A stretch of DNA of 64,000 nucleotides from assembly GCF_011745625.1 (NCBI RefSeq), contig NW_027191469.1, positions 62,001 to 126,000 on the forward strand, given 5' to 3'. Position 1 is the stretch's first letter. Every line of letters begins with the position of its first letter. Shown here piece by piece: positions 1,205 through 7,696 of this stretch. This stretch comes from Cladosporium halotolerans. Taxonomy: Eukaryota. The translations under genes and the position numbers were made by a program. The notes under the pieces are model-generated. The model was not told the origin of the DNA. It saw only the letters and a program-made list of their open reading frames with translations, and made no database searches.

Positions 1205-1739
1205 GATTGAGGAGACTGATGGTGTGATGACTTGGGTAAGCCTCTTTTTCTTTTCTGTTTCTTTTCTTCTTCTACTTCATGTTTGTGGATTGGTTAGGTT
1301 TGGTTTGGGGAGGCTTTGATACCCTGGGGCTCTCGAAAGTGTATCAGTATTGCGTTTATGGCATTGGGTGCACACTGCATACTTTGTGTAGGATATTTTA
1401 TAATCAGTACTTGTGTCAATTTCCCTCAATTGTTTGTAACTTTGACTCTCGAGTCCCTCCAGTCGGAGGTTGGCGATGCACTGTCTCAATGTCACACCAC
1501 GGTTATGATGTCGCCGCAGCGATCGCGCCCCACGTTGTCCCGCATTGTCAGCTCTCTGTCGGACTTCATCCAACGCTCCTTCCTTGATTAAGACCATATC
1601 TGTGTGCACCCGACTTCGAACAAGGACTCTAGTTTGCCCGTTCTTACATATTCCGGCTCAACCACAAGATATCAAAAGTCTGCATTACCCGTCCCAGAGC
1701 CGGTCTTTTCATCGCAAAGGAAGACACTTTCGTCCCGAC

Positions 1740-2816
1740 ATGTCACAACCCACCATCAAGACCAGAGTGCTCATCATCTCGGACACTCACAATGCGCCTC
1801 TCAGCGAGAAGGGCGACGGAAAACCCATCGCCCCCTTCAAATCACCGCTGCCGTCAGCAGACCTCCTCATCCACTGCGGGGACCTCACAATGACCGGCCA
1901 GCAAGACGAATACCACCGGACGCTCGACATGCTCTCCGAGATCTCCGCGCCCGTGAAACTCGTCATAGCCGGTAACCACGATCTCTCGCTGGACCGCGAC
2001 TTCGTCTCATCTCACCGCACGCACGACCCGCAACGCCGCCAACCGCCCTCTATGAGCGAAGAGGACGCTGACGCCCGCGTCAACGCCGCCAGGGATCTCT
2101 GGACCGCACCAGATGGCCGCGCAAAGCAAGAAGGCGTGACCTACCTGGACGAAGGCCTGCACACGATTCCCCTCCCCAACGGCGCAGTGGCGACGGTCTA
2201 CGCTTCGCCGTACACGCCTGAGTTCTGGGACTGGGCGTTCCCCTACGAGCGGCACGAAGACCGCTTCAATGGACCTGGAACCGCGCTCTCAGACGCCGTC
2301 AGCATAGCGCCGTACCCTATGCCAACGCGCTCGAAAGCCGTGCGGCCGGTCGATATCGTCATGACGCATGGTCCGCCTTGGAAACGGCTCGATCCTACGG
2401 CGCGTGTTGAGGCAGTGGGGTGTCCGCATTTGCTGAGGGCGCTGATGAGAGCTAGGCCGACGCTGTGTTGTTTCGGGCATATTCATGAGGGGTGGGGTGC
2501 AGAAAGGGTGATGTGGGCGGAAGGGGCGGAGGAGGTTCCTGGAAAGGCTTGCTCCATTGAGGAGTGGCAGAAGGGTGGATGGGAGGACGGAGTTAAGGCG
2601 AGGGGTGGAGGTGGTGGGCTTGATATCACACCGATAAAGTGCGATGCGGAGGCTGCGAGAGAGAAACGGGCGGAGTTTATTGACATTTCGAAGGAGGGTA
2701 GCAAAGCTATCACGCCAGGTGAGGAGACGTTGTTTGTCAATGCGGCAATCATGGATGTTGCATATCGTCCAGTAAATGCGCCCTGGGTGGTCGACCTGGA
2801 TCTTCCCGCAAGATAA
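1740..2816 (+). CDS. Calcineurin-like metallophosphoesterase (MPPED/239FB-like)
   Basis: ATG at 1740 (MSQPTIKTRVLIISDTH). All metal-binding motifs are present: DTH, HCGD, GNHD, THGPP, FGHIHE, plus C-terminal T.FVNAAI. No intron is needed. Confidence 0.88.
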   Translation: MSQPTIKTRVLIISDTHNAPLSEKGDGKPIAPFKSPLPSADLLIHCGDLTMTGQQDEYHRTLDMLSEISAPVKLVIAGNHDLSLDRDFVSSHRTHDPQRRQPPSMSEEDADARVNAARDLWTAPDGRAKQEGVTYLDEGLHTIPLPNGAVATVYASPYTPEFWDWAFPYERHEDRFNGPGTALSDAVSIAPYPMPTRSKAVRPVDIVMTHGPPWKRLDPTARVEAVGCPHLLRALMRARPTLCCFGHIHEGWGAERVMWAEGAEEVPGKACSIEEWQKGGWEDGVKARGGGGGLDITPIKCDAEAAREKRAEFIDISKEGSKAITPGEETLFVNAAIMDVAYRPVNAPWVVDLDLPAR

Positions 2817-4113: not shown

Positions 4114-5828
4114 TCAACCCCTCCTCCTCCTCCTAACATATGCCCTGTACCCTAAAATTCCCACACAACTCAGCACACAAAACCCGACGGCAACCTTATA
4201 ACCATACATGTAGTTCGGCGCCTGCTTCGCCGGCCACAGCGCCAACGGCATGGCCGAGTTGCCCACAAACAGCAACGACACGGTCCAAGCAACCAGAATG
4301 GCGCGCTCCGTCGGCTGGCTCTTGAACGTGTCGCCCAGCCAGCTCATGATGAGCGGCTCGTTGATGACGGTGGTGAACGAGAGCAAGAACGCAGCCATCT
4401 TGAGACCATCGGACGCCGGCCACGCGGCGAGAATAGAGGCGCAGACGAGCTGGATGGCGTTGACGAAGATGGCGAGCTGCCAGCGCATCTGCAGGCGGTC
4501 GGAGAGGGAGGCGAAAAGGATGGCGGAGAAGATGCTGATGCCGTAGGCGCCGACGGGGATGTTGGAGACTTCGGTGACGGAGAAGCGCTTGGAGCCGTCG
4601 GTGTTGCGCAGGCTGTCGAGGAAGAGGTTGAAGTAGGCGTTTGTTTGCTGGGCCCAGCCCCAAGGTGCGTAGGCGAGGAAGATGAGGGCGAAGGCTGGGC
4701 TGAACATGGTTTTGGCGGCTTTGCGGAGGAGGGGCATGATGGGTTGTGGGCTGAGGGACTGCGTGCGCTTGCCGATGGTTTTGAGGCGGAGGATGGCGGC
4801 GGTGCGTTCGTCTTTACGGAGGTAGCGGGCGCGGGTGTTGGTTGGATAGTCAGGGATGGTAAAGTAGGCGATGGTGGCGCTGACTATTGTCATGATGCCG
4901 TTGATGATGAAGAGCCATCTCCAGCCTGGCAGTCCGGCTCGGGAGTCGAGAGTCTGGTGGATGGCTGATTGCATTGCGAAGGTGAACTAATTGGGACGTT
5001 AGTTCAGTCTTATGGTACTTTCCTCACGCATCAACTCGTTTTGCATGAGAGCTTCTGAGGACGACCGTCATCAGATGACTTACTGCAAGACCGTTAGCTT
5101 TCGTTCATTCATGGTAGTGATAAGCAGTTCTTACCCATGCTCCCAACGTATGATGCCGAAAGATAGATAGCCTGGCGTTTTGCCATCTCACGCGGCGTGT
5201 ACCAAGACAATAGCAGGACAGTGGTTCCTGGCCACGCACTGGCCTCACACATGCCTATCAGCCAACGGAGGACATACATAGGCTTCGGTGAGCTCGCGAT
5301 CGCCATGCAGCCAGTCAAAAGGCCCCAGACAATCTCCAAGGACGGAAGCCAGAGCGACGGCCGTACACGCATCATGATCAGGACAGAAGGAACCATAAAG
5401 ATAGCAAAAGCGATGGTGAAGTAGATGTCAAGCCAGTTGAGGACATTGGTTCCTTCGAGGCCTAGATCGTCGCGCATGCCAGCGGTATAGGCGGCTTTGT
5501 AGTTCGTCTGGTCGATTTTCTTCATAATGATCGAGATGCAGGCGTTCGGAAGGAATATGAAGTCGAGCTTGCGGACGAGTCGTTTTTCGGAGGCTGCCCG
5601 TACCGATGCATCTTCAGGGCTTTCGACGTCGTCCCAGGGTGCCGCGTCGTCGCTATCGCTCTCTGTATTTGAGGGTTGGCTTTGTGGACCAGAGTCTTTT
5701 TGCTGCAAGCCACTTCCATTGCTTCTTTGCACTGGCGTAGTGCTTGAGATCTCCTGCACCTGAGTGATGGGGCCGTCGGCGTTCACATCAGCATGCTTCG
5801 CCGTGTCTTGCGCTTGCGAACGGCCCAT
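4114..5828 (-). CDS. MFS transporter, anion:cation symporter family (pantothenate/allantoate permease, Liz1/Fen2-like); exons 5828-5136 and 4986-4114, about 521 aa
   Basis: Motifs include EKRLVRKLD, IDQTNYKAAYTAGMRDDLGL, RPSLWLP, RWLIGMCEA..WPG....LSWYTPREMAKR, GLPGWRWLFIINGIMT and IPDYP. The in-frame junction GSM|FTFAMQSA requires removal of 5135-4987 (see stwintron finding). Confidence 0.9.
4987..5135 (-). other. [D1,2] stwintron: a 52-nt internal intron (5134-5083) nested inside the donor of a 97-nt external intron (G5135 plus 5082-4987)
   Basis: The minus strand reads ATG|G-GTAAGA...GCTAAC-ggtcttg-CAG-TAAGTC...ACTAAC-gtcccaat-TAG|TTC. There are two branch/acceptor sets. Removing the inner intron rebuilds GTAAGT, and only this route keeps the reading frame. 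Confidence 0.85.
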
Positions 5829-6322
5829 GATGGCCTCTCGGATGCTTCAACAAAAAGAGAAGTGAATAATGGAAAGATCATGCTAGGTTTGAAGGATGAT
5901 GCAGCTTTTGCTTAGTGTAGTTGGCCTTGAGCCAAGGTGGGCCGGGATGTCCAAGCGTGCATAAGGAAGTGCCCGGCGAATGTTGACATGTAGTATTCAT
6001 CATCGGATGCCAGGCTTTCAATGCCCGACCGAGGGAGCCATGTTGTGGATGTGAAACGACTTTAATCGATAGAGTATACAGATAGACTTTCCTCAGCACG
6101 TACGGTCCGCTAATTCCTCCCAATGACCACAACGACAGTCGAAATGCTCTCTCTTCACGCCCGACCATCATGGTTGCAGAAGAGAAACGGAGGGCGAGCC
6201 AGTCAAATTCGGCGGATTGTCACCTCGCCCCACCAGCACTTCGGCAAATCACCAAGCGACAGCCTGCAGCCGATCCAAAGTAAAACCCACGCCTGCATGC
6301 ATGGGACGGTGATAAACGAACG

Positions 6323-7696
6323 ATGGATACAACAGCCGCAGTCCTCATCCTCGACCTCCCGGCACCGGCCCTCGCCGGTATAGACCTGCTCTCCTTCACG
6401 ACAACGCCACGCTTCCGCGGCGTCAAAGACCTCCCACCGGGCCTGCATTTCGTCTTCACAGGCTCCAGCACCGCCTTCTCCGTCCGCCACGGCATCTGGT
6501 TCCGCGTGCACGATCGCCACCAACTCACCATCGCCCGTTGGCAGCAACCCGACGAGACCCTCGCCGTCGAAACCGACGAGACCGAAAAGTTGAGATGGCG
6601 CGCCAACATCGGCGAAGTCTGGGAGAAAGGCCTGACGCCCTATCGACAAACCTCATCGACCAAAGACAACGACGAAGAAGCCCACGATGAATCCGGCGAC
6701 TGGCTCCCACTGACCTCCTACATCACCGACTCCCTCCTCAGCCGCATAACCCAAGGCTCCTCAACGCCCTGGCACCTGACCTCCGCCTCCTCCGCGCCGC
6801 AAGACCTCGACGAAATCCCCGGCCTCGGCGCCTCCTCCAGCGCCACGCACCCAGAACCAGCCCTGCACTTCCTCCCCATCGACCTCAAACGCACCTGGCG
6901 CGCCGACGCCACGGGCCGCGAGCGCACCGACGCCGCGCAAGACCGCTCCTGGGCACTGAACGACCTGCTCACGCAACAGGACTCGCCAGACGGCACCGAG
7001 ATCCTCGGCGAGCTGCAGTTCTGCTTCCTGACGCTGCTGACGCTGAACAACTGGTCGTGTCTGGAGCAGTGGAAGCGGATCCTGACGCTGCTGTTCACGT
7101 GCAAGAGCGCCGTGGGCGCGAAGCCGGATTTGTTCGTGCGCGCGATCGCGACGCTGAGGCTGCACTTGATGCATTGCAAGGATGCCGAGGGCGGGTTGAT
7201 CGATTTGGCGGATGAGGGTGGGAATCTGCTGAAGTCGCTGCTGGCGCGGTTCCGCAAGGGTTTGGAGGGTATGGTGCCGCGCGCTGAGGAGGTGCAGGAT
7301 GTGCTGGATGAGCTGGACGATCTGGAGGCGTACCTCCGGGACGAGCACGGGTGGCAGTTCGGTGGATCGTTTGCGAAATCTGGCTTGCTGGAGCTGGAGG
7401 ACGGGGAGCAGGTGCGGATGGACACGACGGCTTACGATGAAGATGATGAGACGGGCGAGTATGCGCCGTTAGTGGTGGATTTGAGCCCGGAGCAGGCGAA
7501 GTTGTTGGGGCTGGGGGATGCGGTGGATTTGAGAGCCAAGTTGAAAGAGGCGAGTTTGCAGGCGAGGAACGAGGCCGAAGATGGCGATGAAGGAGCAAAA
7601 GCTCACGCTGCACAAGCCTCTAAGGACGATTCCGATGCTCAAGACGACGCGGACGAGGAAATGGACGATCTTGAAGACATGGACGCGCGGTATTGA
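6323..7696 (+). CDS. AAR2: AAR2-family U5 snRNP assembly factor (A1 cistron-splicing factor)
   Basis: 457-aa ORF with GIDLLSFTTTPRFRGVKDLPPGLHFVF, RHGIWF, LTPY, AQDRSWAL, ILGELQFCFL...NNWSCLEQWKRIL and EDDETGEYAPLVVDL. Confidence 0.9.
   Translation: MDTTAAVLILDLPAPALAGIDLLSFTTTPRFRGVKDLPPGLHFVFTGSSTAFSVRHGIWFRVHDRHQLTIARWQQPDETLAVETDETEKLRWRANIGEVWEKGLTPYRQTSSTKDNDEEAHDESGDWLPLTSYITDSLLSRITQGSSTPWHLTSASSAPQDLDEIPGLGASSSATHPEPALHFLPIDLKRTWRADATGRERTDAAQDRSWALNDLLTQQDSPDGTEILGELQFCFLTLLTLNNWSCLEQWKRILTLLFTCKSAVGAKPDLFVRAIATLRLHLMHCKDAEGGLIDLADEGGNLLKSLLARFRKGLEGMVPRAEEVQDVLDELDDLEAYLRDEHGWQFGGSFAKSGLLELEDGEQVRMDTTAYDEDDETGEYAPLVVDLSPEQAKLLGLGDAVDLRAKLKEASLQARNEAEDGDEGAKAHAAQASKDDSDAQDDADEEMDDLEDMDARY

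Follow-up and report, generated by a model that had tools for sequence, protein, structure and literature searches.

A probable [D1,2] spliceosomal twin intron in a predicted pantothenate-transporter-like MFS gene

Fungal spliceosomal twin introns (stwintrons) of the [D1,2] type are described as being removed by two consecutive canonical reactions, with intermediates detected for most of those tested; an occasional one-step missplicing is also described, which leaves a single G behind and puts the message out of frame (PMC12403724; PMC9024468). The same body of work counts over 100 [D1,2] stwintrons in a single Hypoxylon genome and close to 300 across the Xylariales. Dothideomycetes are described as having stwintrons of other types, such as the [D2,3] stwintron in bioDA of Botryosphaeriales, and a [D5,6] reticulon-like stwintron is reported across almost all Pezizomycotina classes. 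Dothideomycetes are also known for introner-like elements (PMC4457414). No mention of the MFS transporter gene described here was found in the surveyed portions of the stwintron literature. We propose that positions 5135-4987 (minus strand) of this gene constitute a [D1,2] stwintron that is removed in two steps, a reading to which we assign a probability of roughly 0.85. The order of the two steps is deduced from the anatomy of the site and from analogy with experimentally studied stwintrons in other fungi.

The gene lies on the minus strand of the window, by which we mean the whole 64,000-nt stretch of DNA that was analysed. It is predicted to be a two-exon MFS transporter of the pantothenate-transporter-like (ACS) group, a membership that rests on MFS_1 matches across both halves and on close homologues so named by their sources. 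Exon 1 (5136..5828), an open reading frame (ORF) that starts with the ATG at 5828-5826, encodes 231 aa ending in ...ASYVGSM; it is colinear with its homologues in alignment and matches Pfam MFS_1 with E=1e-12 over profile positions 10-135. Exon 2 (4114..4986), likewise an ORF, encodes 290 aa that begin with FTFAMQSAIHQ and end at a stop codon at 4116-4114, and it matches MFS_1 with E=5.6e-12 over profile positions 147-342. Both matches exceed the Pfam curated cut-off, and the joined product is 521 aa long.

Between the last base of exon 1 (...TAC GTT GGG AGC ATG, ending at 5136) and the first base of exon 2 (TTC ACC TTC GCA ATG, starting at 4986) lies an intervening sequence of 149 nt, 5135-4987. 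It opens with a single extra G at 5135, the putative first base of a split external donor, which stands ungapped in two contigs from other sequencing runs (X2 and X15). The G is followed by a putative internal intron of 52 nt (5083..5134) with the donor GTAAGA at 5134-5129, the branch site GCTAAC at 5098-5093, whose branch A lies 11 nt before the intron end, and the acceptor CAG at 5085-5083. The remaining 96 nt (4987..5082) would belong to an external intron; they start with TAAGTC (5082-5077) and carry their own branch site, ACTAAC (5003-4998), and acceptor, TAG (4989-4987). With the internal intron removed the external intron would measure 97 nt, and G5135 together with TAAGTC would form a GTAAGT donor. 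The letters and coordinates that an earlier, sequence-only reading had given for 4987..5135 are all present in the sequence.

Comparison with homologous proteins showed how the two exons have to be joined. The closest proteins are 55-77% identical and are named pantothenate transporter-like or ACS-family MFS by their sources; the named close homologues come from Cladosporium, Elsinoe, Hortaea and Ramularia, and the farther ones from Violaceomyces and Rhizoctonia. This points to a Dothideomycete-like ascomycete as the source of the window. In a representative library the orthologue group forms a single 50% cluster, with the next relatives at no more than 38% identity. Alignment revealed an ungapped G(S/Q)M-FT(F/W)A-(M/L)Q across the junction in 27 of 28 close homologues, and 34 of 35 further proteins are also ungapped there; the 35th (P0204) starts at MQSA, just past the junction, and comes from a near-identical relative, in which it is the ORF of exon 2 and is found on 28 contigs. 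The sole exception among the 28, an Elsinoe fawcettii gene model (P0016), deviates for 11 residues directly after ...ASYIGSM, reading VCLAFIPIIHS where the other 27 read FTFAMQSA, and its deviation begins exactly at the stwintron site. This looks like a mis-modelled junction, and the locus, which belongs to another order of Dothideomycetes, may hold an unmodelled intron at the same position. The in-frame product GSM-FTFAMQSA, which had been predicted from the DNA alone, is exactly the sequence that the homologues call for.

The same junction was found in assembled contigs. Among the 23 runs listed for the locus, four (X5, X6, X2 and X15), all of them consisting of assembled contigs, were aligned to 4500-5600. 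The X5 contig (1893 nt) and the X6 contig (1810 nt) each align as 4500-4986 plus 5136-5600, omitting exactly 149 nt (4987-5135) whose ends read GG..AG on the gene strand, with a 1-nt placement ambiguity. A mature junction 5136/4986, appearing as a 149-nt GG..AG intron, was what the sequence-only reading had proposed to look for. X5 and X6 share an organism label and a study, come from two samples and have no recorded library kind. We infer that their contigs are cDNA from their transcript-like lengths, from the 149-nt skip, from the shares of sampled gene words present (0.89 in X5 and 0.86 in X6), which fit a loss of intron words, and from the completeness of X1 (1.00), which derives from the same sample as X6. 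The missing library record would also allow X5 and X6 to be DNA of strains that had precisely lost the intron, in which case there would be no transcript evidence of splicing. We regard this as very improbable: contigs of 1.8-1.9 kb in runs whose longest records are 6.7-7.5 kb, within 20-22 Mb of contigs, resemble transcriptomes, and X1 contains all words, including those of the intron. Even if the strains had lost the intron, the interrupted allele would still need the same excision to encode the conserved protein. The RNA-labelled runs X16-X20 contained only 0.05-0.07 of the sampled words. The X6 contig also omits 1 + 2 letters (net 3) at window positions 4646 and 4652, though X1, from the same sample, is complete; this omission may reflect allelic variation, a slip in assembly or the presence of a second copy.

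The two contigs that bear the joint also speak to a canonical alternative, GT5134...AG4965, which an ordinary gene predictor would probably pick, being in frame and giving a protein of 514 aa with no internal stop that loses FTFAMQS and gains one Ala. Both X5 and X6 connect 5136 to 4986, all but one of the 28 close homologues retain FTFAMQS, and use of this acceptor requires skipping the first AG after the branch site (4987). Homology at the junction thus demands the join 5136/4986 and rejects the acceptor at 4965, and we consider it extremely unlikely that GT5134...AG4965 gives the main product; it could occur as a minor isoform. This in-frame alternative was absent from the sequence-only reading.

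Contigs that retain the intervening sequence were informative about its letters. The X2 contig (8455 nt, guessed to be DNA) covers the whole stretch with 1 substitution and 0 gaps, and X2 may be connected with the source of the window itself. X15 shows 31 differences in 1101 nt and 0 gaps, and clearly represents a different genome, that of a 97%-identical relative; within the stwintron it differs at four positions (5032, 5040, 5056 and 5108), none of which falls in either donor, branch site or acceptor. This X15 contig (depth 27.5, 1857 nt) is guessed to be RNA and keeps the entire 149 nt. If X15 really is RNA, the stwintron would be largely retained in that relative, hinting at inefficient removal there.

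These contigs bear on whether the extra G is genuine. If assembly had wrongly added it to the GGG run, the actual gene would hold a simple 148-nt phase-0 intron (ATG/GTAAGA...TAG/TTC) and would give the same mRNA, and a three-base homopolymer can in principle be miscounted. However, X2 and X15 show 0 gaps across the site, and ORFs of a 97% and an 85% relative, taken from other assemblies, read Gly-Lys, not Val, after GSM. The exon-1 ORF of the first (P0216, 97% identical) ends in GSM-GKNCLSLP followed by a stop, and that of the second (P0217, 85% identical over exon 1) in GSM-GKNCCSGV followed by a stop; after GSM both read GGN AAR AAY TGY, as G+GTAAGAACTG encodes (Gly-Lys-Asn-Cys). According to the P0217 reading, a relative well outside the 97% group has the doubled G too, along with 12 or more nt from the beginning of the structure. 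A miscounted G, a possibility that the sequence-only reading had itself raised, is therefore highly unlikely, and the base at 5135 is taken to be real.

Next, we enumerated all excisions around the site. The net removal of 149 nt is exact, and no single GT..AG excision can produce it or yield the observed mRNA. One-step splicing from GT5134 to AG4987 keeps one G and leads to a frameshift with a stop about 50 codons on. Nested two-step paths to the observed mRNA number four, all of which use donor 5134. Only the path that removes 5134-5083 regenerates GTAAGT with a branch A at normal distance (11 nt); the three others regenerate GTCATC, GTTGAT or GTACCA. Three arguments of the sequence-only reading were upheld: translation agrees that one-step splicing between 5134 and 4987 leaves an extra G and shifts the frame, the sequence agrees that prior excision of the inner intron gives a consensus GTAAGT donor, and the [A2,3] route is closed, exon 2 beginning with T and the enumeration giving donor-side paths only. 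On paper there is also a dead-end route, in which GTAAGT at 5083 is spliced to TAG 4987 first and the inner intron is left without an acceptor. A 14-nt AG-bounded micro-exon inside the inner intron was considered as well and rejected; it presupposes a 37-nt intron that lacks a branch site, and it inserts 5 residues that are present in no homologue, and the transcripts also oppose it.

The published [D1,2] search formula (model A, five motifs; PMC9024468) was run on both strands of the 64-kb window. Model A stipulates an internal intron of at least 42 nt with a DYTRAY branch site 4-20 nt before an HAG acceptor, and a 3' hybrid motif in which the internal acceptor is followed by URWGY. It returned one match in the window, exactly 5135-4987, and it matched 4 of 100 first-order Markov random windows (mean 0.04 hits). 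The 5' hybrid motif is fitted by G5135 plus GTAAGA (5134-5129), one of the model's 24 donors; the internal intron is complete by the same formula (52 nt, GCTAAC with branch A 11 nt from the end, CAG); and the 3' hybrid motif is fitted by CAG/TAAGT, where G plus TAAGT equals GTAAGT. A looser [D1,2] pattern produced one extra weak match at 1498-1370 (minus strand). This match has poor donors and is missed by model A, and we took it as chance.

From the mature mRNA by itself, one step and two are indistinguishable, and a single reaction might take out the 149 nt as a non-canonical GG-AG intron whose inner signals are coincidental. Neither the intermediate (lacking 5134-5083 only) nor the one-G missplice occurs in any of the assembled X5, X6, X2 and X15 contigs, a kind of record from which rare forms drop out. 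The inner donor, the branch site at 11 nt, the acceptor and TAAGT nevertheless fit a five-motif model that few random windows match (4/100), and the inner signals are intact in the 97% relative represented by X15. U2-type donors, moreover, almost always have U at intron position 2, which counts against a GG-AG intron. We therefore judge removal in a single reaction improbable and favour the [D1,2] stwintron.

For the [D1,2] stwintron we envisage the following course. The spliceosome would pair the nearest signals by intron definition and remove the 52-nt internal intron (5134-5083). G5135 would thereby be joined to TAAGTC, forming a canonical 97-nt external intron, GTAAGT...ACTAAC...TAG. A second reaction would excise this external intron, join ...AGC ATG to TTC ACC... 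and restore the GSM-FTFAMQ frame. In all likelihood the stwintron serves no function in itself, and it looks like a by-product of lineage-specific intron gain; the site is empty in more distant orthologues and filled in relatives to about 85% protein identity. No support emerged for the further suggestion of the sequence-only reading that a fixed splicing order could act as a control point for transporter expression.

A metagenome scan yielded 39 loci, among them the close orthologues L001-L014. An intron at the site is absent from 14 of these 14 loci, which read AGCATG/TTCACC or a synonymous sequence with the codons adjacent. Five of the 14 are on contigs of 45-97 kb, and L008, L009 and L010 are taken to be genomic DNA, not cDNA, because they carry extra sequence elsewhere in the gene; some of the short contigs in this set could be transcripts, and L003 and L006 resemble one sequence. 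L008:1408-3105 exceeds the coding sequence by about 150 nt, and the extra in-frame stretches seen with tblastn flank the uninterrupted junction; L008 is probably an intron-richer orthologue. The 12 paralogue-level loci (L015-L026) are likewise uninterrupted at the site. Two distant loci (L027:3225-3280 and L028:3435-3490) are instead interrupted about 20 codons upstream by an intron of about 50 nt, which falls between ...TLFS/LLS and VYWYTP. The partial ORFs P0218 and P0220 stop elsewhere, after TPKEM and TPK, respectively, which suggests other lineage-specific introns nearby. In this part of the gene the set of intron positions seems to change from lineage to lineage.

In the comparison of orthologues for which the sequence-only reading had called, the site is interrupted in the 85% relative, as a stwintron would read, and empty in all 14 metagenome orthologues. 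No relative examined carries a plain intron at the site. Judged from these sequences, the stwintron position is lineage-specific, being apparently occupied in relatives with about 85% identity or more and vacant in those with about 77% or less.

A bolder reading of this distribution, which we regard as doubtful, is that a Dothideomycete lineage acquired the complete twin intron in a single event, at a site that had held no intron. If it were true, the copying mechanism proposed for Xylariales [D1,2] stwintrons, itself unexplained, would also operate in a distant class, and sister copies would be expected elsewhere in the genome. Searches by blastn with the stwintron and with its inner and outer introns found no sister copies in the 64-kb window and the 39 related loci, only chance matches of 8-14 nt. 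Compared with shuffles, the 149-nt RNA has no unusual folding (z = -0.68; 46 of 200 shuffles fold as well), and its first 40 and last 45 nt contain no near-terminal inverted repeats of at least 6 nt. Descent of the inner intron from the outer by duplication was likewise rejected, local alignment being no better than for shuffles (132/2000 for the whole introns and 836/2000 for their interiors).

Ordinary predictors cannot model this junction and would return a frameshifted, truncated or 7-residue-deleted protein; the correct protein needs 5136/4986. If our reading holds, transcripts support a [D1,2] stwintron in a fungus that does not belong to the Xylariales, and more distant orthologues have no intron at its position. 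The case would add a data point to two questions: why the [D1,2] type accounts for nearly all stwintrons, and whether stwintrons arise by gain of the whole unit. The known splicing mechanism of such introns is left unaltered by this case.

Two neighbouring genes were noted in the window. The divergent neighbour at 6284-7696 (plus strand) encodes an AAR2-family protein (Pfam AAR2_1st E=6e-35, AAR2 E=4e-47). AAR2 is a U5 snRNP assembly factor, and that a splicing-factor gene adjoins a twin-intron gene is most likely coincidence. An ORF at 1509-2816 (plus strand) carries a calcineurin-like metallophosphoesterase domain (Pfam Metallophos E=7e-14).

Compared with the described systems, the locus is most readily set beside the [D1,2] stwintrons of Hypoxylaceae and Xylariaceae. 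It has the same order of a G, a full internal intron, URWGY..., an external branch site and an acceptor (PMC9024468; PMC12403724). As in those families, the net excision is confirmed by correctly joined exons in expression data, a one-G frameshift missplice route exists, here on paper only, and the intron position is missing from most orthologues. Unlike the sister stwintrons of Xylaria (NTIRE-10), this one shows no near-terminal inverted repeats, unusual folding or copies in the window and the 39 loci. The bioDA [D1,2] and [D2,3] cases, in which an intron arose in the donor of an older intron (PMC5639578), have the same end product, and such a path could have produced this stwintron; relatives in the bioDA cases carry a standard intron at the same position, whereas the site here is either empty or begins GGN AAR. 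With the introner-like elements of Dothideomycetes the locus shares the fungal class and a lineage-specific gain at a new position, but those elements are defined by many similar copies per genome, and here the window holds no copy (PMC4457414). In its host, too, the locus departs from the Hypoxylaceae and Xylariaceae stwintrons, the nearest named homologues being Dothideomycetes (Cladosporium, Elsinoe and Hortaea), not Xylariales. In animals, recursive splicing at ratchet points also regenerates a 5' splice site after the first reaction, so that a long intron is removed stepwise; the regenerated donor follows the upstream exon, and the introns concerned are very long. Here, in contrast, a 52-nt intron would lie inside the donor itself, and the exon boundary would move back by one base.
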